Below, one piece after another: positions 10,291-63,500 of a stretch of 64,000 bases of DNA. Position numbers and translations under genes: made by a program. The notes under the pieces are model-generated. The model did not search any database. It was not told the DNA's origin and saw only the letters and a list, made by a program, of their open reading frames with translations. The DNA is from Chloroflexota bacterium (GTDB lineage Bacteria; Chloroflexota; Anaerolineae; DTLA01), in contig JADBJK010000015.1 in assembly GCA_014874485.1 (NCBI GenBank), positions 55,955 to 119,954 on the forward strand, given 5' to 3'. How positions within the stretch are numbered: position 1 is the stretch's first letter; the number at the start of each line of letters is the position of its first letter.

Positions 10291-10317
10291 AACTTTACCA
10301 CAGAGAAAATTGGCTGC

Positions 10318-10469
10318 TGTCATTGCGAGCGAAGCGAAGCAATCTCACGCCCTATCTGTCATGCTGAGCGAAGCGAAGCATCTCGGTTGGCGAGATTCTT
10401 CGCGGCTGGGCCGCTCAGAATGACAATCTACCGGGATTGCTTCGGGCGCTGCGCGCCCTCGCAATGACA
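10318..10469. mobile_element. MITE-like element, copy 1 (152 bp; 12-bp terminal inverted repeats TGTCATTGCGAG / CTCGCAATGACA)
   Basis: The termini are a perfect inverted pair. Inside is a nested inverted pair GTCATGCTGAG...CTCAGAATGAC, and the same architecture recurs at four or more other loci in this window. Confidence 0.7.
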
Positions 10470-10521
10470 AACTATCAAGAATCCCTGTGGCAAAATACGA
10501 GGCGGATAGCCGAGGAATCCC

Positions 10522-11138: not shown

Positions 11139-11480
11139 GTGCACGAACTGCCCGTTACCGAGCAAATCCTCAAGGTCGTGCTGGATCACGCGCGCAAGGC
11201 GGAGGCGCACCGCGTCGTGCACGTCAACCTCGTCATCGGCGACCTGACCACGTTCGTGGACGAGAGCATCCAATTCTACTTTGATTTCCTGTCGCGCGGG
11301 ACCGAGGCGGAGGGCGCGACCCTGCACATCCGCCGCATTCCGGCCCGCGTGCGGTGTCATGCCTGCGGCGGCGAGTTCGCGCCCGACGGCGTGGACTGGC
11401 GCTGCCCCCACTGCGGCGGCCTGGGCGGGGAAGTGCTCGCGGGCCGCGAGTCGTACATAGAGAGCATTGAGGTGGAATAG
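11139..11480 (+). CDS. hypA: Hydrogenase nickel insertion protein HypA
   Basis: The N-terminal MHE motif and the Zn site CHACGG...CPHCGG are present; the product is 113 aa. Confidence 0.85.
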   Translation: MHELPVTEQILKVVLDHARKAEAHRVVHVNLVIGDLTTFVDESIQFYFDFLSRGTEAEGATLHIRRIPARVRCHACGGEFAPDGVDWRCPHCGGLGGEVLAGRESYIESIEVE

Positions 11481-11485
11481 CCCCC

Positions 11486-12151
11486 ATGAAGAAAGTGGAA
11501 GTCGTAACCGACATCATGAGTGCCAACGACCAGATCGCCCAGGAGAACGCCGAAACCCTCCGGGCGCATGGCATCCTCACGGTGAACCTGATGGCATCGC
11601 CCGGGGCCGGCAAGACCAGCCTCATCCTGGAGACCGCGCGGGCGCTTGACGGCCGCCTGCGCCTGGGCGTGATTGAGGGCGACGTGGCCTCGCGCATTGA
11701 CGCGGACAAGGTCGCCGCCGCGGGGATTCCCGTGGTGCAGATCAACACCGGCGGCGCGTGCCACCTGGACGCGCCCATGATCCGCCAGGCGCTCCGCGCG
11801 CTCCCGCTGGACGAGATAGACCTGCTCATCGTGGAAAACGTCGGCAACCTCATCTGCCCGGTGGAGTTTCGCCTGGGCGAGACGCTGCGCGTCATGATCG
11901 CCAGCGTGCCCGAAGGCCACGACAAGCCCTACAAGTACCCGGGCATCTTCACGGCAGTGGAGGCCGTCGTCATCAACAAGATGGATTTGGCCCCCTACGT
12001 GGACTTTGACCTGGGCGCGCTGCACGAGGCCATACGGGGCATGAACCCGCGCGCCGAAATCTTTGAGGTCTCCTGCCGCACGGGCGAAGGCATTGGCCGA
12101 TGGGCCGAATGGCTCTGGGCGCAGTGGCAGGCGTATCGGCCGGCGAAGTAG
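11486..12151 (+). CDS. hypB: Hydrogenase nickel incorporation GTPase HypB
   Basis: The product has a P-loop (ASPGAGKTS) and a CH metal motif (GGACHLD), and is 221 aa long. Confidence 0.85.
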   Translation: MKKVEVVTDIMSANDQIAQENAETLRAHGILTVNLMASPGAGKTSLILETARALDGRLRLGVIEGDVASRIDADKVAAAGIPVVQINTGGACHLDAPMIRQALRALPLDEIDLLIVENVGNLICPVEFRLGETLRVMIASVPEGHDKPYKYPGIFTAVEAVVINKMDLAPYVDFDLGALHEAIRGMNPRAEIFEVSCRTGEGIGRWAEWLWAQWQAYRPAK

Positions 12152-12172
12152 GGGGAGAGGGCGGTCCCGGAC

Positions 12173-14560
12173 ATGGCCTCGGTTGTCGCCAATCGGTTCA
12201 AGGTAACCGGCGTGGTGCAGGGGGTGGGTTTCCGCCCCTTTGTGTACGGCCTGGCGGTGGGGCTGGGGCTGCGCGGCTGGGTCATCAACACGTCGTCGGG
12301 CGTGGTGATTGAGGTGGAAGGCCCGCCCGATGCCCTGGATGCCTTCGCGCGCGACCTGGTGGCGAAGGCCCCGCCCGTGGCGCGCATAGAGACCGTGCAG
12401 CGGGAGGAGATTCCGCCCAACGGCTGGGAGCGGTTTGAAATCCGCGAGAGCCGGGCCGAGGCTGGGTACGTGCTCATCTCGCCGGACATCGCCACCTGCC
12501 CCGAATGCCTGCGCGAACTGTTTGATCCCAACGACCGCCGCTACCGCTATCCGTTCATCAACTGCACCAACTGCGGGCCGCGTTTCACCATCATCGCCGA
12601 CGTGCCTTACGACCGGCCCCTGACCACCATGGCCGCGTTCCAAATGTGCCCGGAATGCCAGGCCGAGTACGATGACCCGCTGAACCGCCGATTCCACGCG
12701 CAGCCCAACGCCTGCCCCGTGTGCGGGCCGCGGGTGTGGCTTGTGCCCGCTTCGGCGCAGGACGCCGAGGCGCTGACCCCGCCCGCGGGCGACCCGGCCA
12801 ACGCCGAGGTGCTCGCCGAGGCAGCGCGCTTGCTGCGGGGAGGCGCCATCCTCGCCATCAAGGGCCTGGGCGGGTTCCACCTGGCCTGCGATGCGACCAA
12901 CCCCGACGCAGTGCGCACGCTGCGGGAACGCAAGCGCCGCCCGGCGAAGCCCTTGGCGGTGATGATGGCCTCGCTGGACGAGGTGCGCCAGCATTGCGAG
13001 ATCACGCCCGACGAGGAGGCGCTCCTGACCTCGCGCCAGTGCCCCATCGTCCTGCTGGAGTGGAAGCGCGACTCCACAGTTGTGGAGGAGGTGGCGCCGA
13101 ACAACCGCTACCTGGGCGTGATGCTCCCCTACACGCCGCTGCACCATATTCTGCTCCGCGACGCCGGGCGGCCGCTGGTCATGACGAGCGGCAACCTGTC
13201 GGAGGAGCCTATCGCGCAGGACAACGAGGAGGCCTGGCGTCGGCTGCGCGGCCTGGCCGATTGGTTTCTGCTCCACAACCGGGCCATCTACGCCCGCTAC
13301 GATGACAGCGTCTGGTTTGTGCCGCGCGTCCCCGACGGCAAGGCGGGTGCCGAGTCGGTGCCCCAGCCGCTGCGCCGCTCGCGGGGCTACGCGCCGTATC
13401 CCGTGCGCCTGCCCTTCCGCGCCCGCACGGTGCTGGCCACCGGCCCGGAACTCAAGAACACCTTCTGCATCACCCGCGACGAGCATGCCTTCGTTAGCCC
13501 CCACATCGGCGACATGGAGAACCTGGAGACGCTGGAGCACTACGAGACGGCCATGGGCCTCTACGAGCGGCTGTTCCGCCTGCGGCCTGATGCGATAGCC
13601 TGCGACCTGCACCCCGACTACCTGGCGACGCGCTACGCCCACGAGCGGGCCGAGCGGGAGCGCCTGCCCCTCATCGGCGTGCAGCACCACCACGCCCACA
13701 TCGCGGCGTGCATGGTGGACAACGGTATCACCGAGCCGGTCATCGGCGTGGCCCTGGACGGCACGGGGTACGGCCTGGACGGGCGAATCTGGGGCGGCGA
13801 GTGGCTGGTCGCCGACCTGCGCGGGTTCCGCCGCGCCGCGTGGCTGGAGCCGCTCCCGCTCCCCGGCGGCGACGCGGGCATCCGCAACCCGTGCCGCATC
13901 GCGTATGCGTACCTGCATGCGCTGTTCGGCGAAGTCCCCGCGCTGCCCTTCCTGGCGCAGATGGACGAGGCCGAAATCGCCGCCGTGCAGCGGCAGGTGG
14001 AGCGCGGCCTGAACACCGTTCTGACCACGTCCTGCGGCCGGCTGTTTGACGCCGTCGCAGCGATGGCCGGCGGGCGGGGCCGCGTTACCTACGAGGCGCA
14101 GGCGGCCATTGAGATGGAGATGGCATCGGAGGGCGACGAGGGCGACCCCTACGGGTACTTCTTCCGCTGGGCGGAGCCGCTCGCCTGGGGGAACACGGAT
14201 GCCTTGCCCCCGCTGGCCTGCGCCTTTGAGGTCGCCCTGAAGCCGCTGCTGGCGGGCGTCGTGCGCGATGTCCAGGCCGGGCGGATGCTGGGCGAAGTGG
14301 GCGGGCGCTTCCACCGCACGCTGGCGAACATGATCGCCGACCTGTGCTGCATGATCGCGCAGGGCACCGGCCTCGCGACGGTGGCCCTGTCGGGCGGGTG
14401 CTTCCAGAACCGCCTGCTGCTGGAACAGTCGGTGGGCGAACTCCGACGGCGCGGGCTGCGCGTGCTGCTGCACCGCCAGGTTCCGGCCAACGACGGCGGC
14501 GTGTCGCTGGGCCAGGCGGCCATCGGCCACTTTGCCCTTGAGGAGGGGCGGGCGCGATGA
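12173..14560 (+). CDS. hypF: Carbamoyltransferase HypF
   Basis: It contains an acylphosphatase domain (VQGVGFRPFVY), two CxxC...CxxC zinc fingers, and YrdC and Kae1-like domains, for 795 aa in total. Confidence 0.9.
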   Translation: MASVVANRFKVTGVVQGVGFRPFVYGLAVGLGLRGWVINTSSGVVIEVEGPPDALDAFARDLVAKAPPVARIETVQREEIPPNGWERFEIRESRAEAGYVLISPDIATCPECLRELFDPNDRRYRYPFINCTNCGPRFTIIADVPYDRPLTTMAAFQMCPECQAEYDDPLNRRFHAQPNACPVCGPRVWLVPASAQDAEALTPPAGDPANAEVLAEAARLLRGGAILAIKGLGGFHLACDATNPDAVRTLRERKRRPAKPLAVMMASLDEVRQHCEITPDEEALLTSRQCPIVLLEWKRDSTVVEEVAPNNRYLGVMLPYTPLHHILLRDAGRPLVMTSGNLSEEPIAQDNEEAWRRLRGLADWFLLHNRAIYARYDDSVWFVPRVPDGKAGAESVPQPLRRSRGYAPYPVRLPFRARTVLATGPELKNTFCITRDEHAFVSPHIGDMENLETLEHYETAMGLYERLFRLRPDAIACDLHPDYLATRYAHERAERERLPLIGVQHHHAHIAACMVDNGITEPVIGVALDGTGYGLDGRIWGGEWLVADLRGFRRAAWLEPLPLPGGDAGIRNPCRIAYAYLHALFGEVPALPFLAQMDEAEIAAVQRQVERGLNTVLTTSCGRLFDAVAAMAGGRGRVTYEAQAAIEMEMASEGDEGDPYGYFFRWAEPLAWGNTDALPPLACAFEVALKPLLAGVVRDVQAGRMLGEVGGRFHRTLANMIADLCCMIAQGTGLATVALSGGCFQNRLLLEQSVGELRRRGLRVLLHRQVPANDGGVSLGQAAIGHFALEEGRAR

Positions 14561-25225: not shown

Positions 25226-25311
25226 GCGGCGCAGAACGGCGCATTTGGCGCGGGCCCGGCCTGCGCGAATCGGCAGGGCGCAAGGGACAGTGCGAGGCGG
25301 CCCCTCGCGAT

Positions 25312-25340
25312 TTGACTGTCCCTCTTCCTGTGGCTATAAT
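25312..25340 (+). promoter_or_regulatory. Promoter TTGACT-N17-TATAAT overlapped by inverted repeat GGGACAGT...ACTGTCCC (25284..25322), a candidate GntR operator
   Basis: The hexamers have 17-nt spacing. An 8-bp inverted repeat with GT...AC character spans the -35. Confidence 0.45.
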
Positions 25341-25370
25341 ATGTCAGACATCAGACAAAGGGGTGTGTGG

Positions 25371-26111
25371 ATGCGACTGAAATACGACTCCCGTCCCCTC
25401 TACCTCCAGGCCGAGGAGGCCCTCAGTCGCCTTATCCAAGATGGCACGTACCGCATCGGAGACCGCCTGCCGCCCGAGCCGGAACTGGCCCAGCGTCTGG
25501 GGATTTCGCGGGCCACGCTCCGCGAAGCCCTGCGCGCCTTTGAGGACAAGGGCCTTATCACCCGCCGTCGCGGGCTGGGGACCTTCATCACCGCGCCCGT
25601 TCCCCTCATAGACAGCGGCCTGGAGCAACTGGAGAGCCTGGACTCCCTGGCCCGCCGCATGGGCCTCGTCTGCACCACCGAGGATTTGGAAATCCGGGAG
25701 GAGCCGGCCGCGCAGGAAATCGCCTCGCGGCTCGGAATCGCGCCAGGCGACGCGGTCATCACCGTGGGCCGCACGAAAGTTACCAACGGCGTCATCGCCG
25801 CCTACATGTACGACGTGCTCCCCGCCTGGGTTACCGACATCGCCTCGCTCAAGGCGTCGTTCAAGGGGTCCGTCCTGGACTACCTGCTGGAGCGCGGTGT
25901 TCCTTTGAGTTTCGCCTGGACGAACATCATCGCGACGCGCGCGGACCCCGTTGTCGCCGCCAAGTTGCGCGTCAAGCCGAGCACTGTACTTCTGCTGTTG
26001 GAGGAGGTTACGTACACCCACGACAACCAGATTGCAGGCTACTCGCAGAACTACTTCTTGCCCAGCGTGTTCAAGTTCCACCTGATTCGCCGTATTGTCC
26101 CATCGCGTTAG
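25371..26111 (+). CDS. GntR-family transcriptional regulator with UTRA effector domain (HutC subfamily)
   Basis: It has an N-terminal wHTH (GDRLPPEPELAQRLGISRATLREALRAFEDKGLI) and a C-terminal UTRA-like domain. The 25371 ATG was chosen because the 25341 ATG abuts the -10 element. Confidence 0.75.
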   Translation: MRLKYDSRPLYLQAEEALSRLIQDGTYRIGDRLPPEPELAQRLGISRATLREALRAFEDKGLITRRRGLGTFITAPVPLIDSGLEQLESLDSLARRMGLVCTTEDLEIREEPAAQEIASRLGIAPGDAVITVGRTKVTNGVIAAYMYDVLPAWVTDIASLKASFKGSVLDYLLERGVPLSFAWTNIIATRADPVVAAKLRVKPSTVLLLLEEVTYTHDNQIAGYSQNYFLPSVFKFHLIRRIVPSR

Positions 26112-26143
26112 GACAAAAACAACTATTCTGAAAGGAGAGACGT

Positions 26144-27214
26144 ATGAAAACAGAGAGTTTCCGTGGCAAGGACTTCATCACCCTGTTGGACTGGACGCGG
26201 GAGGAAGTGGAGACCATCCTGGACGTGGCGCTGGACCTGAAGCGGCGCTACGCCATGCGCGAGCCCCACGACCACCTGCTCCGCGCACGCACCCTGTTCA
26301 TGATCTTCTACAACCAGAGCCTGCGCACCCGTAACTCGTTTGAGGCCGGCATGACCCAACTGGGCGGCCATGCCCACTACCTGGACCCGGGCAAGATTTA
26401 CACCCCGGCGCTCCCTGGCAAGGAGGTGGCCTACTCCACCGAGCGCGTCTCCGACGTGGCGCGTGTGCTGGCCCGCATGGGCGACGCCATCGCCATCCGC
26501 TGCTACGGCGACCCGGTGGACTGGGTGTACGGCGGCGCTAACGAACTGATCCGCAACTTCGCCTACTGGGCCGACATCCCCGTGCTCAACATGGAGGACG
26601 ACAAGTACCATCCGTTCCAGGCCCTGGCCGACATCCTCACGGTCAAGGAGAAGTTCGGCACGTTCAAGGGCGTCAACTTCGTCATGAGTTGGGCCTACTC
26701 GCCCAGCATCCACAAGCCCCGCGCCGTGCCCCAGAGCGCCATCATCGCGGCGACCATGATGGGCATGAACGTTACCCTCGCGCACCCCGAGGGCATGGAA
26801 CTGGACCCCGAAGTGCTGGCGGCGTGCGAGGCCAACGCGCGGCACAACGGCGGCTCGTTCAAGATCAGCCACGACATGCGCGAGGCGTTCAAGGGCGCGC
26901 ACGTGGTGTATCCCAAGGCCTGGTGCGCGACGCCCATCTTCAAGCCCCCGGTAGGCGAGGACGACCCGAAGAAGACCCAGCAGATCTTTGACAGCCACAA
27001 GGACTGGATTTGCGACGCCGAGAAGATGCGCCTCACGGACCCGGAGAGCATCTACCTGCACTGCCTGCCCTGCGACCGCGGGTACGAGGTAACCGACGAG
27101 GTCATTGACAACACGACCCGCTCCAAAGAGCGCCCGTGGCTGTCGGCCGCCTACGACGAGGCGGAGAACCGCCTGCACGTCCAGAAGGCCGTCATGAGCC
27201 TGGTCATGAGTTAG
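26144..27214 (+). CDS. Carbamoyltransferase, OTC/ATC superfamily paralogue 1 (YgeW/knotted-type or catabolic OTC-like; substrate unknown)
   Basis: It has an SxRTR carbamoyl-phosphate motif (SLRTRNSFE), HPFQALADI and HCLPCDRG, with C-terminal insertions relative to canonical OTC. Confidence 0.7.
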   Translation: MKTESFRGKDFITLLDWTREEVETILDVALDLKRRYAMREPHDHLLRARTLFMIFYNQSLRTRNSFEAGMTQLGGHAHYLDPGKIYTPALPGKEVAYSTERVSDVARVLARMGDAIAIRCYGDPVDWVYGGANELIRNFAYWADIPVLNMEDDKYHPFQALADILTVKEKFGTFKGVNFVMSWAYSPSIHKPRAVPQSAIIAATMMGMNVTLAHPEGMELDPEVLAACEANARHNGGSFKISHDMREAFKGAHVVYPKAWCATPIFKPPVGEDDPKKTQQIFDSHKDWICDAEKMRLTDPESIYLHCLPCDRGYEVTDEVIDNTTRSKERPWLSAAYDEAENRLHVQKAVMSLVMS

Positions 27215-27329
27215 CCCACCGCGCGAGCGAGATTCCCTTCACCACAGAAAACCCGGCGACCGCAGGGCGAAGCGCAGACCTCCGCGATCTCCGCGGTCTC
27301 TGTGGTGAATCATTCGGAGGTACGAAAAG

Positions 27330-28373
27330 ATGGATCTGTTCGGCAAGGATTTGATCACAACCCAGGAATGGACCAAGGAAGAACTGGATGCCGTGCTGGA
27401 CCTGGCGGCGAAGATGAAGCGCGACCGCTTCAACCCGCGCTTCACCAGCCTGCTGCAGAACAAGACGTTCTTCATGTTCTTCTACAACCCGTCGGTGCGG
27501 ACGCGCCAGAGTTTTGAGTGCGCCGCCACCGAACTCGGCGGCCATGCCCAGTTCCTGGAGCCGAAGGCCATGCGCCTGAAGACGGCAACCAGCGCGGGCG
27601 AGACGGTGGAGGACGCCGCCAAAGTTATGGACCGCTACGCCGCGGGCCTGGGCATCCGCATCCTGGAGGACAAGATCGGCGCGTATGGCGAGGGCGACGA
27701 CCTCATCCGCGAGTACGCCTACTGGGCCCGAATGCCCGTCTTCTCCATGGCGCACGACAAGTATCACCCGTTCCAGGGCCTGGCCGACATCATGGGCTGG
27801 GCCGAATGGTACGGCAAAGGCCCAGGCCAGACGCTGGACATGAGCGTGCTCAAGGGCAAGAAACTGCTCGTTACCTGGGGGCACGGGGCACTGGCCCGCT
27901 CGTGGTGCTCGGTGCAGGAGGCGCTGCTCATCGGCTCCCGCTACGGGATGCACGTAACCCTGGCGCACCCCGAAGGGTATCCGCTGGATCCCCAGGTCAT
28001 TGAGTGGACGCGGGCCAACTGCCAGGCCAACGGCACCACGTTTGAGGAGACCACCGACGTGCGCGAGGGGTACGTGGGCGCGCATGTGGTGTACTCGCGC
28101 CACTGGATGAGCCCCGATGCGTACAAGGATGGCGAGTTCCTCAAGCAGCAGGAGATTGAGCGGGCGCTGAAACTCACCGAGTGGATTTGCGACGCCGAGA
28201 AGATGCGCCTGACCGACAACGCCATCTTCACCCATCCCATGCCCATTGACCGCGGCCACGAGGTTACCGACGAGGTCGCCAGCGGCCCGCGCTCGTGCAT
28301 CTACGACGTGGCCGAGAACCGCCTGCACGTGCAGAAGGCCGTCATGGCCCTGACCATGTCGGGCCTTCTGTAG
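27330..28373 (+). CDS. Carbamoyltransferase, OTC/ATC superfamily paralogue 2 (substrate unknown)
   Basis: It has SVRTRQSFE and HPFQGLADI, and HPMPIDRG in place of HCLP. It shares about 40% similarity with paralogue 1. Confidence 0.7.
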   Translation: MDLFGKDLITTQEWTKEELDAVLDLAAKMKRDRFNPRFTSLLQNKTFFMFFYNPSVRTRQSFECAATELGGHAQFLEPKAMRLKTATSAGETVEDAAKVMDRYAAGLGIRILEDKIGAYGEGDDLIREYAYWARMPVFSMAHDKYHPFQGLADIMGWAEWYGKGPGQTLDMSVLKGKKLLVTWGHGALARSWCSVQEALLIGSRYGMHVTLAHPEGYPLDPQVIEWTRANCQANGTTFEETTDVREGYVGAHVVYSRHWMSPDAYKDGEFLKQQEIERALKLTEWICDAEKMRLTDNAIFTHPMPIDRGHEVTDEVASGPRSCIYDVAENRLHVQKAVMALTMSGLL

Positions 28374-28407
28374 GCCATACCCATACCACACAAAGGAGTG
28401 CGTCGTT

Positions 28408-29352
28408 ATGACGAAGAAAGTCGCAGTGGTTGCCATCGGCGGCAACTCGCTCATCAAGGACAAGAATCATCAGACGGTTCCCGACCAGTACCAGGCCGCC
28501 AAGGAGACTTGCTACCACATCGCGGGCATGATTGAGCAGGGCTGGGATGTGGCCATCGGCCACGGCAACGGGCCGCAGGTGGGGTTCATCCTGCGCCGCA
28601 GCGAATTGGCCCGCCACGAACTGCACGAGGTGCCGCTGGACGTGTGCGGGGCCGATACCCAGGGCGCCATCGGCTACATGCTCCAGCAGAACTTGCAGAA
28701 CGAGTTCCTGCGACGCGGCATGAAGAAGCAGGCCGTTACCGTCGTTACGCAGGTGGTGGTGGATCGCAACGACCCCGCCTTCCAGAACCCGAGCAAGCCC
28801 ATCGGCTCGTTCATGACCGAGGAGGAGGCCAAGCGCCGCCGCGACCTGGAGGGCTGGCACGTGGTGGAGGATGCTGGGCGCGGCTGGCGGCGGGTTGTCC
28901 CGTCCCCCCTGCCGCAGAAGGTGAAGGAGCAGGACGCGGTTGAGGAGTTGCTCAGCAAGGGGTTCGTGGTGATCACCGTGGGCGGGGGCGGCATCCCCGT
29001 CGTGGAGAACGAGAAGGGCGAACTAGAGGGCGTCGCCGCGGTGATTGACAAGGACTACGCCTCGTCGCTCCTGGCCCGCAGCATCAAGGCCGACCTGTTC
29101 CTCATCTCCACCGCCGTGGAGAAGGTGTACCTGAATTACGGCAAGCCCGACCAGAAGGCCATTGACCGCATGACCGTGGCCGAGGCCAAGCAGTACATGG
29201 CCGAGGGCCACTTCGCCAAAGGCTCCATGCTCCCGAAGATTCAGGCCATCATCTGGTTCCTGGAGGCGGGCGGCAAGCAGGCCATCATCACCAACCCGGA
29301 GAACATTGAGCGCGCGCTGCGTGGTGAGACGGGCACGCTCATTGTTCCGTAG
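28408..29352 (+). CDS. arcC: Carbamate kinase
   Basis: It has an amino-acid-kinase fold (VVAIGGNSL...GHGNGPQVG) and a carbamate-kinase C-terminus (GSMLPKIQAI). Confidence 0.8.
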   Translation: MTKKVAVVAIGGNSLIKDKNHQTVPDQYQAAKETCYHIAGMIEQGWDVAIGHGNGPQVGFILRRSELARHELHEVPLDVCGADTQGAIGYMLQQNLQNEFLRRGMKKQAVTVVTQVVVDRNDPAFQNPSKPIGSFMTEEEAKRRRDLEGWHVVEDAGRGWRRVVPSPLPQKVKEQDAVEELLSKGFVVITVGGGGIPVVENEKGELEGVAAVIDKDYASSLLARSIKADLFLISTAVEKVYLNYGKPDQKAIDRMTVAEAKQYMAEGHFAKGSMLPKIQAIIWFLEAGGKQAIITNPENIERALRGETGTLIVP

Positions 29353-29452
29353 CGACTTCGCGCTACCGCATTCTGAAACGTCGGGGACAATGGGGTCTCC
29401 GGCGTTTCTCTTTTGCAGGGAGTGGGAAGGCGCACAGGGATTTTTGGTGGTA

Positions 29453-30082
29453 TGTCATTGCGAGGGGCGAAGCCCCGAAGCAATCCCTGGGACGTGAGAT
29501 TGCTTCGCTTCGCTCGCAATGACGGAGAAGGCACTTGCGACGCACCTCCGAGGTGCGTCGCAAGTGGGCCGACTGGATTGCTTCGCTTCGCTCGCAATGA
29601 CAGCAAAGGGGTTGTCATTGCGAGGGGCGCAGCCCCGAAGCAATCCCCGGGGCGCGAGATGGCTTCGCTTCGCTCGCAATGACGGAGAATGCACGTGCGA
29701 CGCACCTCCGAGGTGCGTCGCACGTGGGCCGACTGGATTGCTTCGCTTCGCTCGCAATGACAGCAAAGGGGTTGTCATTGCGAGGGGCGCAGCCCCGAAG
29801 CAATCCCCGGGGCGCGAGATGGCTTCGCTTCGCTCGCAATGACGGAGAATGCACGTGCGACGCACCTCCGAGGTGCGTCGCACGTGGGCCGACTGGATTG
29901 CTTCGCTTCGCTCGCAATGACAGCAAAGGGGTTGTCATTGCGAGGGGCGCAGCCCCGAAGCAATCCCCGGGGTGCGAGATTGCTTCGCTTCGCTCGCAAT
30001 GACGGAGAAGACACTTGCGACGCACCTCCGAGGTGCGTCGCAAGTGGGCCGACTGGATTGCTTCGCTTCGCTCGCAATGACA
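29453..30082. repeat. Tandem array of about four 160-bp composite units built from MITE-family modules (each unit has TGTCATTGCGAG termini and a 13-bp-stem hairpin CTTGCGACGCACCTC-CGAG-GTGCGTCGCAAG)
   Basis: The unit period is exactly 160 bp (29610/29770/29930). Units are near-identical and there are no unique spacers. Confidence 0.8.
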
Positions 30083-30102
30083 GGTGCCGCGCTGCATCCC
30101 CA

Positions 30103-31161
30103 TCACGGTTCCTCCAGCGCCGCCAGTTCCGTCAGCCTGGCCCAATCGTAGTTCTCGCGCCACAGGAAATAGCCGCCGAGGACGAAGATGGGGAGGTACA
30201 CGATGGCGTGAAGCACAATCCCGCACGCCAGGGCCAGCGCGGGGTCAACCCCGTACAGCCCCAGCGTGAGCACGCACAGGTAATGGAAAACGCCGATGCG
30301 CCCAGGCGACGACGGCACGATGATGCCGATGTTCAGGATGGCCAGCAGGAGCGGGGCCGCCGTCCACGGAAGGCGCAGGCCAAACGCCCAGAAGACGAGG
30401 GCGTTGGTGAGAATCATCAGCGCCCAGTTGCCCGCCGACCAGCACCAGAGCACCAGGTTCATGCGCAGGCTCTTGAGCGGGCGCAGGCTCAGCGCGGCCC
30501 GCTGCACCGCGCCCATGACCCCCAGCCGCCCCAGCCACGACTCGGGCCCCACCATCCGCACCACCCAGGCGGGCAGGCGGCCCTCCCACCGCGAGAGCGC
30601 CGTCATCGCCGCCAGGAGCACCACCATCCCGCCGCTCACGAAGAGCGACGACCCCTTGACCCACGACGGGAAGGGCATGAACACCGATGTTACCAGCACC
30701 ACCAGGAGCAGCATGAGGCTGTCCAGCGCCTTCTCCAGCACGATGGTGCCCAGCACATACGCGCCGCTGACGGATTCTATCCGCGCCAGCAGGTACGCCC
30801 GCGCGATCTCGCCCAGGCGCGCGGGAAGCGCCGCGTTGACCGCCTGGCCGATGTAGATGACGCTCATCAGTTTGCCGAGGCGCCGCTCCCTGTGTTCGGG
30901 GTAGAACAGGGCCTTCCAGCGGGCGGCTTTCACGGCCTGCGTCGCCAGGAACGCCGCCAGCGCCGCGCCCACCAGCCACGCATTCGCCTGGCGCAGGGCT
31001 TCCCACACCTCGCGCAGGTGCACCTGTCTGAAGGCGAGCCACAGGAACAGCACGCTCAACAGCGTGCCTGCGATGAGGCCCAGGTTCCGTCGCGTGCGGT
31101 TCGGGGATGCGGTGCGAATGGGTACCTCCTCGGCGCGCCCCGCGTCCTGGGGCGAGCGCAA
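30103..31161 (-). CDS. UPF0104/LPG-synthase-TM (flippase-like) integral membrane protein
   Basis: It has 7-8 predicted TM helices and the conserved GRIGVFHY region. Confidence 0.55.
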   Translation of the reverse strand: MRSPQDAGRAEEVPIRTASPNRTRRNLGLIAGTLLSVLFLWLAFRQVHLREVWEALRQANAWLVGAALAAFLATQAVKAARWKALFYPEHRERRLGKLMSVIYIGQAVNAALPARLGEIARAYLLARIESVSGAYVLGTIVLEKALDSLMLLLVVLVTSVFMPFPSWVKGSSLFVSGGMVVLLAAMTALSRWEGRLPAWVVRMVGPESWLGRLGVMGAVQRAALSLRPLKSLRMNLVLWCWSAGNWALMILTNALVFWAFGLRLPWTAAPLLLAILNIGIIVPSSPGRIGVFHYLCVLTLGLYGVDPALALACGIVLHAIVYLPIFVLGGYFLWRENYDWARLTELAALEEP

Positions 31162-39824: not shown

Positions 39825-39972
39825 TTCTGGCTGCAAAGACGCCGGTTGGCCTCCGGGCGTCTTGACGCGGTAAGGCTTGCTTCGGGGGATTGCCGCGAGG
39901 CGATTCCCCGAAGCACCCAAAAACGACGGATTTCGCAGTACCTACCAGTTGACCACAGAGGAAAGTACCCGT

Positions 39973-40126
39973 TGTCATTGTGAGCGAAGCGAAGCAATCT
40001 CACGCTCCGTCTGTCATGCTGAGCGCAGCGGAGCATCTCGGTTAACGAGATTCTTCGGCGCTTCGTGCCTCAGTAGGGACAATTCATGAATTGTCCCTAC
40101 GGGCGCTGCGCGCCCTCGCAATGACA
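39973..40126. mobile_element. MITE-like element, copy 2 (154 bp, with an internal perfect palindrome GGGACAATTCATGAATTGTCCC)
   Basis: It has the same TIRs and module order as copy 1. Confidence 0.7.
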
Positions 40127-40177
40127 ACCAGTAAGAAGCCCTGTGGTGCAGTACCTAATCCAGAAGAGAGGTGGCAC

Positions 40178-41578
40178 ATGAAACCCAAAACCCTGATCTG
40201 GGTGGTGGGTTTGGTCGGGATCACGGTGCTGATCCTGGCGGCCTGTGGAGCCGCGGCGACGCCTACGCCGACCACAGCGCCCACGAAAGTACCGCCGATC
40301 AACACGCCTGTACCACCGCCCACCAACACCCCGGCACCGACGAACACTCCGGTGCCCCCGACACCCACGCCCATCCCGAGCGCGGACAACTGCGTGGCGT
40401 GTCATACCAACGCGGAAACCCTGCAGAAACTCGCCGAGACCAAGAAGACCGGCTCCGCCGAAACCGAAGGCGAGGGTTGAGCGGGCGAGTTGCCTCCGTT
40501 GGAGGCATGGGAAAAGGTCTTCATCGGCAACGACACCTTCCTCAAGGACGTCCACAACACGCCCAACTGCATCGGCTGCCACGGCGGCCAGCCGGATACG
40601 AATGACAAGGCCGTTGCCCACCAGGGCGTGGTGCGCGACCCGTCAGCCGATCCCCAGGGTGTCTGCGCCAACTGCCACGGCGACATCGCCAAGACCTACG
40701 CCACTTCGCTGCACTACACCATCAGGGGGTACTACACCATCCTCGGCGAGCGCGGGTTTGACTTCAACGACCCGGCCAAGGCCGAAATCTTCAACCGCCA
40801 CTGCACCAGTTGCCATGCGACCTGCGGCCAGTGCCACATCTCGCGGCCCACGTCGGCCGACGGCGGCCTCGTGAAGGATCACCAGGTCAAGAGCATCGTC
40901 TCGCTCAGCGACACGTGCCTGGGCTGCCACGGCGGGCGCGTCGGCCCCGAGTTCATGGGCAAGAACGCGGGCGTGCCCGGCGACGTCCACTGGACCAAGG
41001 GCGTCAACTGCTTCAAGTGCCACAATATGACGCAGTTCCACGGCGACGGCACGCAGTACGCCCACCGGTACGACGGCAAGCCTGTGCCTTCGTGCCTGGA
41101 TTGCCACCCGGACGCCGCGCCCGGCAAGGGCCAGGTCATGCAGCACAACATCCACGGCGACAAACTGGACTGCCGCGTGTGCCACTCGGCCGGGGCCTAC
41201 AAGTCCTGCTGGAACTGCCACGTCGGCCTAGACAAGGAAGGTCTGCCGTATCGCAAACTTGACCCGTCGGTGATGACCTTCAAGATCGGCAAGAACCCGA
41301 ACCCGACGCCCGACCGACCGTGGGAGTACGTCCTGGTGCGGCACATCCCGGTGCCCGCGGACATCTTCGGGTACTACGGCGACAACATGCTGCCCAACTG
41401 GGCCGCCGTGCCCACCTGGAAGTACGCCACCGTGCACAACATCCAGAAGATCACGCCGCAGAACCAGGACTGCAAGAACTGCCACGGCCATCCGGAACTG
41501 TTCCTGACGGAGAAGGACGTGGATCCGGCGGAACTGGAAGCAAACCGCGCCGTGATCGTTACGGAGATTCCGAAGTAG
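40178..41578 (+). CDS. Multiheme c-type cytochrome lipoprotein (~11 CxxCH motifs) interrupted by a single in-frame TGA at 40478..40480: either selenocysteine/readthrough or a disrupted gene
   Basis: Track ORFs 40091..40480 and 40490..41578 share a frame and are separated only by the TGA. The upstream part supplies a signal peptide with a lipobox (LAAC), a PT linker and the first heme site (CVACH). The downstream part has ten CxxCH motifs but no signal peptide of its own. A hairpin TGCCTCC-GTT-GGAGGCA begins 11 nt after the TGA. Confidence 0.55.
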
Positions 41579-42066
41579 TCGGTTTCACCGCAGAGAACGC
41601 AGAGACCGCAGAGGGAGACGAGAAATCGGGCTCCTTTGCGGTCTCTGTCATGAAATTGCTGCCCGCACTGCCTGGCTTGTCATTGCGAGGGCGCGTAGCA
41701 GTCGGTTTCACCACAGAGAACGCAGAGACCGCAGAGGGAGACGAGAAATCGGGCTCCTTTGCGGTCTCTGTCATGAGCTTGCTGCCACACTGCCCGGCTT
41801 GTCATTGCGAGGGCGCGAAGCAGTCGGTTTCACCACAGAGAACGCAGAGACCGCAGAGGGAGACGAGAAATCGGGCTCCTCTGCGGTCTCTGTCATGAGC
41901 TTGCTGCCACACTGCCCGGCTTGTCATTGCGAGGGCGCGAAGCAGTCGGTTTCACCACAGAGAACGCAGAGACCGCAGCGGGAGACGAGAAATCGGACCC
42001 CCTTTGCGGTCTCTGTCATGAAATTGCTGCCCTCATGCGACGCACCTCGCAGGTGCATCGCACGTT
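41579..42066. repeat. Tandem array of four ~120-bp units of a second repeat family (GTTTCACCRCAGAGAACGCAGAGACCGCAGAG... ending in TGTCATTGCGAGGGCGCG)
   Basis: The period is about 120-121 bp (41579/41700/41820/41940). Each unit contains an 11-bp-stem hairpin CAGAGACCGCA...TGCGGTCTCTG. Confidence 0.75.
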
Positions 42067-44504: not shown

Positions 44505-44868
44505 TTACGTTTCACCGCAGAGGGCGCGGAGACCGCAGAGATCAAGGTTTCTAGAACTTGACCGCAGAGTAAATTGTCTGGTGTCATTGCGGGCCAAGCA
44601 TCTCGCGGCCCACGTGCGAGGCACCTCCGAGGTGCGTCCCACGTGCCCCTGCTGGGATTGCTTCGGGCGCTGCGCGCCCTCGCAATGACACCTCATCTGT
44701 CATGCTGAGCGAAGCGAAGCATCTCGGTTGACGAGATTCTTCGGCGCTTTGCGCCTCAGAATGACGGTCTAGTGAGCGAAGCAGTCTCCTGCTTGCGGGC
44801 GATTGTTTCACCGCACCTGTGCAAGCATCCCCTAGCACCCTCTGCGTTCTCTGCGACTCTGCGGTGAG
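44505..44868. repeat. Composite repeat block: a rearranged MITE copy (44582..44766) flanked by second-family modules
   Basis: It contains GTGTCATTGCG..., the hairpin module GCGAGGCACCTCCGAGGTGCGTC, the GTCATGCTGAGCGAAGCGAAGCATCTCGGTTGACGAGATTCTTCGGCGC module, and GTTTCACCGCAGAG modules. Confidence 0.65.
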
Positions 44869-45563: not shown

Positions 45564-45641
<78 letters not shown>

Positions 45642-45831: not shown

Positions 45832-45904
45832 GGGGCTGTAGCTCAGTGGGAGAGCACTTGTCTGGCAGACAAGGGGTCAGGGGTTCAAGTCCCCTCAGCT
45901 CCAC
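45832..45904 (+). tRNA. tRNA-Ala (anticodon GGC)
   Basis: It has a cloverleaf with G3:U70, the anticodon loop CUGGCAG and a T-loop TTCAAGT. Confidence 0.8.
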
Positions 45905-46024: not shown

Positions 46025-46413
46025 TGTCATTGCGAGCGAAGCGAAGCAATCTTACGCTCCGTTTGTCATGCTGAGCGAAGCGAAGCATCTCGGTTGACGA
46101 GATTCTTCGGCGCTCCGCGCCTCAGAATGACGGGGCGGTGGCTGTCATGCTGAGCGAAGCGAAGCATCTCGGTTGACGAGATTCTTCGGCGCTCCGCGCC
46201 TCAGAATGACGGGGCGGTGGCTGTCATGCTGAGCGAAGCGAAGCATCTCGGTTGACGAGATTCTTCGGCGCTCCGCGCCTCAGAATGACGGGGCGGTGGC
46301 TGTCATGCTGAGCGAAGCGAAGCATCTCGGTTGACGAGATTCTTCGGCGCTCCGCGCCTCAGAATGACAGCCTACCGAGATTGCTTCGGGCGCTCCGCGC
46401 CCTCGCAATGACA
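46025..46413. mobile_element. MITE-like element, copy 3, expanded by a 4x tandem amplification of its internal 79-bp module (46064..46379)
   Basis: The TIRs TGTCATTGCGAG...CTCGCAATGACA are intact. The internal unit GTCATGCTGAGCGAAGCGAAGCATCTCGGTTGACGAGATTCTTCGGCGCTCCGCGCCTCAGAATGACGGGGCGGTGGCT is repeated four times. Confidence 0.75.
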
Positions 46414-53477: not shown

Positions 53478-54475
53478 TAGTCCTCGCCCCGCGCGACCCC
53501 CGGCCCCCGCCCGCGGCTGAAGCCGTCGGGCTGAAAGGGCCAAGCCCTGCGGGCTATCCCAGCCCCACCGGGGCTTCGCCCGTTCAGCGCGGGGGTTTAG
53601 CCCCGCGCGGGCATGCGCCCCTGCCCTCGCCCGCGGCTGAAGCCGTCGGGCTGAAAGGGCCAAGCCCTGCGGGCTATCCCAGCCCCACCGGGGCTTTGCC
53701 CATTCAGCGCGGGGGTTTAGCCCCGCGCGGTCCTGCCCCGCCCTCTCCCGCGCGCCCCTGCGCCCGCCCGCGGCTGAAGCCGTCGGGCTGAAAGGGCCAA
53801 GCCCTGCGGGCTATCCCAGCCCCACCGGGGCTTCGCCCGTTCAGCGCGGGGGTTTAGCCCCGCGCGGGCATGCGCCCCTGCCCTCGCCCGCGGCTGAAGC
53901 CGTCGGGCTGAAAGGGCCAAGCCCTGCGGGCTGCCCGTAGGGCCCAGCACGCTGCGCCCAGCCCGAACGGGGTTTTGCCCATTCAGCGCGGGGGTTTAGC
54001 CCCGCGCGGCCGTGCGCCCCTGCCCTCGCCCGCGGCTGAAGCCGTCGGGCTGAAAGGGCCAAGCCCTGCGGGCTATCCCAGCCCCACCGGGGCTTTGCCC
54101 ATTCAGCGCGGGGGTTTAGCCCCGCGCGGTCCTGCCCCGCCCTCTCCCGCGCGCCCCTGCCCGCGGCTGAAGCCGTCGGGCTGAAAGGGCCAAGCCCTGC
54201 GGGCTGCCCGTAGGGCCCAGCACGCTGCGCCCAGCCCGAACGGGGTTTTGCCCATTCAGCGCGGGGGTTTAGCCCCGCGCGGCCGTGCGCCCCTGCCCTC
54301 GCCCGCGGCTGAAGCCGTCGGGCTGAAAGGGCCAAGCCCTGCGGGCTATCCCAGCCCCACCGGGGCTTTGCCCGTTCAGCGCGGGGGTTCAGCCCCGCGC
54401 GGCCCTGCCCCTTTCGCGCCTTTCGTGCCCTTTCGCGCATTTCGCGATCCAAACGCCCTGCCCGCGCGTTTGTAC
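53478..54475. repeat. About 1 kb of GC-rich tandem palindromic repeats (third family; ~7 units of 120-145 bp sharing the core GGCTGAAGCCGTCGGGCTGAAAGGGCCAAGCCCTGCGGGCT and the hairpin GCGCGGGGGTTTAGCCCCGCGC)
   Basis: Cores recur at about 53516, 53637, 53772, 53890, 54031, 54166 and 54307, with two alternating variant sub-modules between them. Confidence 0.75.
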
Positions 54476-63354: not shown

Positions 63355-63500
63355 GGGTTTACCGCAGAGCACGCAGAGGGCGCAGAGATTTGTTGGATGC
63401 TGGGGTAACAGTTGCGACGCACTTCCGAAGTGCGTCGCAACTGTGGAACTGCCGGGTTGAGGGTTTACCGCAGAGCACGCAGAGAACGCAGAGAAAGACA
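63355..63500. repeat. Second-family repeat block (two GGTTTACCGCAGAGCACGCAGAG modules flanking a 13-bp-stem hairpin AGTTGCGACGCAC...GTGCGTCGCAACT)
   Basis: There is a direct repeat of the module at 63355 and 63460, with a perfect hairpin between the copies. Confidence 0.65.

Follow-up and report, generated by a model that had tools for sequence, protein, structure and literature searches.

We analysed a 64,000-nt stretch of DNA from a Chloroflexota bacterium (contig JADBJK010000015.1, hereafter the window), in which a hairpin-repeat array lies at positions 29453-30082 between a carbamate-kinase-like gene on its left and an LPG_synthase_TM-family gene on its right. Our results suggest that this array is a tandemly amplified mosaic of hairpin modules resembling repetitive extragenic palindromic (REP) elements, and that it represents neither a row of independent transposon insertions nor a dedicated regulatory device. 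We put the probability of this reading at about 70%.

The array and its units

The array is strictly periodic, as an initial annotation of the window had claimed. Tandem Repeats Finder (TRF) reports it at 29453-30083 with a period of 160 bp, 3.9 copies, 97% matches, 0% indels and a score of 1164, and the start-to-start spacings returned by the repeat finder are 160 and 160 bp. Each period consists of a 150-bp element bounded by TGTCATTGCGAG...CTCGCAATGACA, which bears out the inverted termini that had been proposed, followed by the 10-bp linker GCAAAGGGGT. The order inside the element is a forward module, a linker of 12-14 nt, a reverse module, a 35-nt palindrome (palindrome C) and a second reverse module. 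The features are as follows.

29453-30082, no strand: hairpin-repeat array, 630 bp, four 150-bp elements and three identical 10-bp linkers, period 160 bp
29453-29602, plus strand: unit 1 element, TGTCATTGCGAG...CTCGCAATGACA, 8 differences from units 2 and 3
29613-29762, plus strand: unit 2 element, identical to unit 3 in the unit alignment
29773-29922, plus strand: unit 3 element, identical to unit 2 in the unit alignment
29933-30082, plus strand: unit 4 element, 6 differences from units 2 and 3 and 6 from unit 1
29603-29612, 29763-29772 and 29923-29932, plus strand: linker GCAAAGGGGT, 10 bp, three identical copies
29454-29485, again at 29614, 29774 and 29934, plus strand: forward hairpin module A, preceded by T (TGTC tag)
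29498-29523, again at 29978-30003, minus strand: reverse module A, inner copy, GTCATTGCGAGCGAAGCGAAGCAATC on the minus strand
29576-29601, again at 29736, 29896 and 30056, minus strand: reverse module A, terminal copy
29532-29566, 29692-29726, 29852-29886 and 30012-30046, no strand: palindrome C, perfect, 35 nt, 17-nt arms and one central C

The forward module A reads GTC-ATTGC-GA-GGGGC-GAA-GCCCC-GAA-GCAAT-C, and the inner reverse copies at 29658-29683 and 29818-29843 carry one stem mismatch each. All modules of the array read TGTC-AT...AT-C, with one forward and two reverse copies of ~30 nt per unit, so that 12 hairpins are packed into 630 bp and bracket segments of 10-52 nt. As single-stranded DNA (ssDNA), one unit is predicted to fold at -54.4 kcal/mol (z = -6.3).

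Palindrome C reads CACTTGCGAC...GTCGCAAGTG in units 1 and 4 and CACGTGCGAC...GTCGCACGTG in units 2 and 3; the two versions differ by a paired change, T/A to G/C, and both are perfect palindromes. All four units contain the perfect internal hairpin described earlier, although its arms are longer than stated (17 rather than 13 nt) and its sequence differs between units. The joint change of the two arms could reflect selection on the hairpin or intrastrand templated repair within the palindrome. Palindrome C also forms a separate repeat family in the window, with other copies at 42037-42061, 44616-44640 and 63414-63438.

A CRISPR reading was rejected, in agreement with the initial annotation, since the repetition covers the full 160 bp, with the same 10-bp linker in all three places, and leaves no unique spacers. 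We also rejected a protein-coding role for the open reading frames (ORFs) that overlap the array, which are in-repeat artefacts between two well-supported genes. At gathering thresholds, Rfam matched only two tRNAs in the whole window, and nothing in the array.

Evidence from independent assemblies

The array is real and probably contains about four copies. On the left, the exact carbamate kinase protein recurs on ten other contigs, and the sequence leading up to the array is shared at 100% identity by four other assemblies, all of which end within the first module or just past unit 1; one contig (L005) carries unit 1 exactly and completely. On the right, the exact LPG_synthase_TM protein is found on 7 other contigs, the right junction of the array is matched in L176 and L178, and contigs that come from the right flank enter the last module and then end. 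Units 2 and 3 have one and the same sequence, from which unit 1 departs at 8 positions and unit 4 at 6, so that no fewer than three distinct units must exist.

It could be argued that the true locus holds only one or two units and that the assembler inflated their number. All short-read contigs, whichever flank they come from, end in the first or last module; this, the identity of units 2 and 3, and the fact that three arrays of the window all have ~3.8-3.9 copies would be in keeping with such an artefact. We nevertheless regard it as unlikely, because a collapsed or looped single unit cannot yield three different unit sequences, and because both junctions and the whole of unit 1 are found in independent assemblies. 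Moreover, the ~123-kb source contig, from an Anaerolineales metagenome-assembled genome, reads through many such repeats. Contig L005 ends at the last base common to the two continuations 'unit then linker' and 'unit then right flank', which is the end point expected if both continuations exist, but further copies of the module elsewhere in the genome might account for the break too. In practice, every short-read assembly is interrupted here by arrays of such modules, a point of importance for the quality of genomes assembled from metagenomes.

A dispersed family of oriented hairpins

The module that builds the array is an oriented hairpin of ~26-34 nt. From an unpaired (T)GTC tag it runs through a basal stem of 5 bp (ATTGC/GCAAT) and an internal loop rich in G and A to a short variable apical stem of 2-6 bp closed by a GNA triloop (GAA or GCA), with a C directly after the palindrome. 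Of the 25 occurrences of the terminus motif GTCATTGCGAG in the window, where 1.2 would be expected, 12 belong to the array; the matches outside it fall in predicted intergenic gaps, where they form solo elements of 107-152 bp and two further arrays. More generally, the architecture of GTC, an AT-opening stem, the complementary stem and C is found in 32 copies in the window versus 2.4 in shuffles, and its basal stem occurs in covarying versions (ATTGC/GCAAT, ATGC/GCAT and ATTC/GAAT).

TRF finds three more such tandem arrays in the window. At 46026-46412, an element with module A termini surrounds four 79-bp units that are 100% identical, each an inverted pair of related hairpins, GTCATGCTGAG...GCATC and GTCATTCTGAG...GAATC; this array is placed between two tRNA genes (45564-45636 and 45832-45903) and a leucyl-tRNA synthetase gene. 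The array at 41571-42031 (122 bp x 3.8, 94% matches) is made of a different module, CACCACAGAGAACGCAGAGACCGCAGAG..., together with a truncated start of module A, and the copy of palindrome C at 42037-42061 follows it. The third, at 53498-54409, is large and complex, with periods of 120-273 bp and unrelated GC-rich hairpins (CGCGGCTGAAGCCGTCGGGCTGAAAGGGCC... and CAGCGCGGGGGTTTAGCCCCGCGCGG) that are not of the GTCAT type. With these three arrays in the same window, and with related arrays in Chloroflexus, in Neisseria (PMC1797815) and, as BIMEs (bacterial interspersed mosaic elements), in other bacteria (PMC2817692), the earlier remark that the arrangement is satellite-like for a bacterial chromosome overstates its rarity.

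Some solo copies are nested. The module A elements at 10300-10490, 39955-40150 and 44565-44700 lie ~13-15 nt inside a further inverted pair (CCACAGAG ... CCTGTGG) and themselves enclose a pair of module B, making three nesting layers. This nesting suggests that a composite element is copied in its entirety, or else that new insertions favour hairpin pairs already in place.

Distribution across phyla and the recurring partner gene

In a scan of one genome per species, with 21 bases of module A fixed and the apical part free, at least 119 stretches, distributed over more than 20 phyla, matched exactly, Chloroflexota being the commonest among the matches listed. The apical insert forms a perfect stem of at least 4 bp in 39% of the 127 distinct inserts listed, versus 7% of shuffles, and the apical stems of the matches listed comprise 43 different arm sequences with loops that are mostly GAA, GCA or GTA. 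Pairing across such varied arms indicates that the structure is conserved, beyond sequence alone. Chloroflexus sp. SKYG63, too, has module A in tandem arrays. A literature search for the motif string returned only chance matches to primers.

When the ORFs within 600 bp of the motif were clustered for the 119 matches listed, neither a transposase nor any other family recurred, apart from a single coding partner, a 95-aa GIY-YIG ORF present at two loci. At one of them (L053) the ORF sits exactly between a forward and a reverse module A, and at the other (L125) copies of module A surround it. The proteins match Pfam GIY-YIG with E values of 1e-12 to 1e-19; NCBIfam offers no meaningful family for them, and a sequence search of PDB returned only 1zg2, UPF0213 protein BH0048 (E 8e-4).

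This partner recalls the Ssn proteins, single-domain GIY-YIG proteins of ~94 aa that bind hairpins termed NTS solely as ssDNA and cut a few nucleotides upstream; cleavage needs the 3 nt 5' of the palindrome, and binding needs the C on its 3' side (PMC11893778, Chenal et al. 2025). The ssn genes are typically flanked by repeats, and the NTS-ssnA-NTS layout has been noted as resembling an insertion sequence (IS) (PMC11893778). Searching metagenome contigs for relatives of the 95-aa protein, we obtained 50 loci. Within 200 bp of the gene, GTCAT-hairpins are found on the upstream side in 30 of the 50, on the downstream side in 35 and at both ends in 25; those upstream are usually forward and those downstream reverse. 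Hairpin density is 5.8/kb near the gene versus 0.51/kb elsewhere in the same loci, an 11-fold enrichment. The flanking hairpins are of module A or B types in some loci (module A types in L126, L127, L129, L137 and L161) and the canonical Neisseria NTS GTCATTCCCGCGAAAGCGGGAATC in others. Proteins with the same hairpin class share 56.3% identity versus 51.8% otherwise, a difference reached by 0 of 2000 permutations among loci that are not independent, and this similarity fits co-evolving specificity.

Two metagenome loci, L139 and L148, carry a further arrangement: past Ssn-like genes with canonical NTS, the hairpins GTCATTCCCGCG... and GTCACCCTCGCG... alternate in orientation at a spacing of ~50-100 bp. 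Arrays resembling NIMEs (the intergenic mosaic elements of Neisseria) thus exist beside ssn genes outside Neisseria.

These observations bear on two explanations that would make the array the product of a transposase. According to the first, the 150-bp units are MITEs (miniature inverted-repeat transposable elements), that is, non-autonomous derivatives of a DDE-transposase IS with TGTCATTGCGAG as terminal inverted repeats, which inserted next to each other. Perfect 12-bp inverted termini do bound the elements, and solo copies of 107-152 bp are found in several other intergenic regions. However, no target-site duplication is present at the five solo copies and the array likewise lacks flanking direct repeats; no transposase recurs within 600 bp of the motif in the 119 matches listed, and the one coding partner to emerge is a gene for a GIY-YIG nuclease. 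What had been called a 'terminal inverted repeat' is in itself a hairpin, oriented and with stems that covary. Furthermore, the identity of the three linkers and of units 2 and 3 suggests that unit and linker were duplicated together, rather than inserted independently. We thus consider adjacent MITE insertions very unlikely, and the label 'MITE modules' used in the initial annotation is only loosely right: it captures the inverted termini, but not their hairpin nature, the lack of target-site duplications or the absence of a recurrent transposase beside the motif in the 119 matches listed.

According to the second, the hairpins are REPs or REPINs (paired REPs) mobilised by a REP-associated tyrosine transposase (RAYT, of the IS200/IS605-type Y1 HUH kind), and the array is the equivalent of BIME-2 of E. 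coli. It would be tempting to adopt this idea, since the hairpins come in inverted pairs and in a REPIN-like 72-bp form, and since they share extragenic positions, tandem mosaic arrays and IS110 targeting with REP systems (PMC2817692, PMC3116915). The tag, however, is TGTC and not GTAG, no Y1 transposase gene was found beside the motif in the 119 matches listed, and the associated gene encodes a GIY-YIG protein. In addition, CGTC/TGTC-tagged repeats have been reported without RAYT (PMC3733652). Mobilisation by RAYT therefore seems to us highly improbable.

Flanking genes and a possible role in transcription

The genes beside the array are convergent, as had been noted, the kinase gene on the plus strand and the LPG_synthase_TM gene on the minus strand both facing it.

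28408-29352, plus strand: carbamate-kinase-like gene (arcC), 314 aa, Pfam AA_kinase (E 7e-30), named carbamate kinase in the source record
29375-29418, plus strand: intrinsic terminator of the kinase operon, 14-pair stem (29375-29408) followed by the T-tract TCTTTTG, 35 bp upstream of the array (terminator scan)
30103-31161, minus strand: LPG_synthase_TM-family membrane protein gene, Pfam PF03706 (E 3e-43), stop codon 20 bp from the array

The kinase gene is the last of an upstream cluster (25245-29352) that also contains a GntR/UTRA regulator and two paralogous carbamoyltransferase (OTCase family) genes, and that looks like a carbamoyl-phosphate-yielding catabolic operon.

Selection might have kept the array as an element acting at the level of RNA or transcription, for example as a terminator, an insulator or a stabiliser of a 3' untranslated region. 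Its place between convergent genes, 20 bp past the stop codon of the minus-strand gene, and its GC-rich, very stable hairpins would suit such a role, and roles of this kind have been hypothesized for REP/BIME elements (PMC3733652). The evidence nevertheless makes this quite unlikely. The terminator scan found no terminator-like site (a stem followed by a T-run) on either strand of the array, and arcC has its own strong, canonical terminator before the array, so that no terminator or insulator function of the array is needed; the 'large transcriptional insulator' envisaged in the initial annotation is accordingly unsupported. A strain that is ~97% identical has other content at the site, which argues against a conserved requirement, and the modules themselves turn up in many phyla and in unrelated settings. 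Also, Ssn binds ssDNA and not RNA (PMC11893778). Our understanding of the flanking genes is unchanged by the array.

Origin of the array and local instability

We suggest that the array arose from modules that have spread to most of the larger intergenic regions of the window. One composite unit (forward module, reverse module, palindrome C, reverse module and 10-bp linker) would then have been amplified in register to about four copies, most likely by unequal homologous recombination or replication slippage between directly repeated modules. Tandem duplication is inferred from the absence of indels and from the identity of the linkers with one another and of unit 2 with unit 3. When single-stranded, as in replication, repair or DNA uptake, the array would fold into very stable hairpins and might expose 12 candidate nuclease sites (top strand 4, bottom strand 8), if the enzymology of Neisseria applies here. 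By the same analogy, an Ssn nuclease may act in the source genome.

The visible outcome is a locally unstable site, and in a close relative a different mosaic and an IS110 insertion occupy it. The contig in question (L001; NCBI GCA_054680255.1, BAAHHH010000008.1) is 96.6% identical to the window over 11 kb. At the array site it has 72-bp elements, which share the linker GCAAAGGGGT and lack palindrome C, as well as an inverted remnant of the flank of the palindrome. An IS110-family element adjoins a truncated module A (L001:11225-12724; ORF 11344-12429, DEDD_Tnp_IS110 and Transposase_20); the contig ends just past it, leaving the right junction incomplete, and its transposase is absent from the 64-kb window. 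These differences between strains lend indirect support to the earlier proposal that the array could nucleate recombination.

Several points weigh against our reading and its link to Ssn. Both junctions are independently confirmed, yet none of the available contigs spans the array. The hairpin detector fixes the 5' GTC and the 3' C, and conservation at these positions is partly built in, although these ends do not account for the enrichment of hairpins beside the GIY-YIG gene. The 50 loci that establish this enrichment are phylogenetically non-independent. By tblastn, neither the 64-kb window nor contigs L001-L006 yielded an Ssn-like gene. The published pattern for the Ssn-related motif (SRM) repeats to which NTS belong, HGTCWYN(0-2)YYVSBRHN(0-5)WNVSBRGN(0-2)RNCYNB, has 0 matches in the window (0.57 in shuffles), while the Neisseria NTS used as a control does match; it fits 0 of 37 hairpins of the window and 0 of 28 two-tier hairpins flanking Ssn-like genes. 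The link to Ssn is consequently carried by architecture and gene association, and not by the published definition.

Even among the 105 hairpins that flank Ssn-like genes at the 50 loci, only 19 match the SRM pattern. Since this pattern misses the two-tier form, existing censuses of such repeats are probably underestimates.

A more far-reaching possibility, which we regard as a rather doubtful conjecture, is that the two-tier TGTC hairpins form a separate Ssn/GIY-YIG specificity class that is still actively mobile in Chloroflexota, and that in-register arrays such as the present one, whose linkers are constant and whose units are nearly identical, are footprints of nuclease-dependent copying, in which a single-strand nick 5' of the hairpin would be followed by copy synthesis. 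If this were true, GIY-YIG genes with their hairpins would be bacterial transposons of a new class, rather than a domesticated nuclease accompanied by passive repeats.

Comparison with known repeat systems

The modules resemble NTS/SRM in being oriented hairpins with GTC directly 5' of an AT-opening palindrome and C directly 3', present in many clustered intergenic copies. SRM are hairpins of 20-50 nt with these ends, which are the positions critical for cleavage and binding, and the window has the 32 copies counted above against 2.4 in shuffles. Like NTS, hairpins of the window's type bracket ~95-aa GIY-YIG genes, in genomes other than the source, and the same protein family is flanked by NTS elsewhere. 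They differ from NTS/SRM in their two-tier build, in which an internal G/A loop separates the basal stem of 5 bp from a mini-hairpin at the apex, and in their Chloroflexota host.

A second relative is the group of CGTC-tagged REPs, an earlier class covering the repeats now called NTS or SRM. Their tag can also be TGTC (often) or CCTC, their stem starts with A-T, no dedicated transposase was known for them, and dRS3 is one of them (PMC3733652, Di Nocera et al. 2013). As in these repeats (among them dRS3 of Neisseria and RPE-4/6 of Rickettsia), the modules show a TGTC tag, an A-T stem start, a short C-rich tail and frequent inverted dimers, and no dedicated transposase was found nearby in the 119 matches listed. 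The CGTC-tagged REPs, however, have a continuous stem of 8-9 bp and a loop of 4-5 nt, whereas the stem here is interrupted and ends in a GNA triloop, and they have been reported from five phyla, Chloroflexi not among them (PMC3733652).

In their arrangement, the modules are closest to NIME arrays, in which hairpins bracket short repeat segments in intergenic regions, vary between strains and collect IS insertions, and in which the dRS3-type hairpin is the target of an IS110-like phage recombinase (PMC1797815, Bentley et al. 2007). The array shares with NIMEs the 12 hairpins bracketing short segments, a syntenic site that differs between strains and an IS110 insertion. Unlike NIMEs, which are irregular and contain many families of RS repeats, it is a regular, in-register amplification of one 160-bp composite unit; its basal stem is ATTGC/GCAAT and not that of dRS3 (ATTCCC-N8-GGGAAT), and it comes from a different phylum.

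REP/BIME-2 of E. coli and the REPINs of Pseudomonas are comparable in other ways. They too are extragenic palindromes in alternating orientation with fixed linkers and tandem amplification, they form long hairpins when single-stranded, and they are targets of the IS110 family (PMC2817692, PMC3116915). REPs and REPINs pair a GTAG tag with a Y1 HUH transposase, where the modules described here pair a TGTC tag with a GIY-YIG partner.

Thus, judged by its sequence, the module is a two-tier variant of the superfamily that comprises the CGTC/TGTC-tagged REPs and NTS/SRM, rather than a plain member of it. This would extend the Ssn-linked hairpin-repeat system to Chloroflexota in two-tier form, a modest extension of known biology. 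A distant phylum also holds a regular tandem counterpart to the NIME-like arrays, which had been described as confined to Neisseria, and this counterpart shares with them the hallmarks of variation between strains and targeting by IS110.

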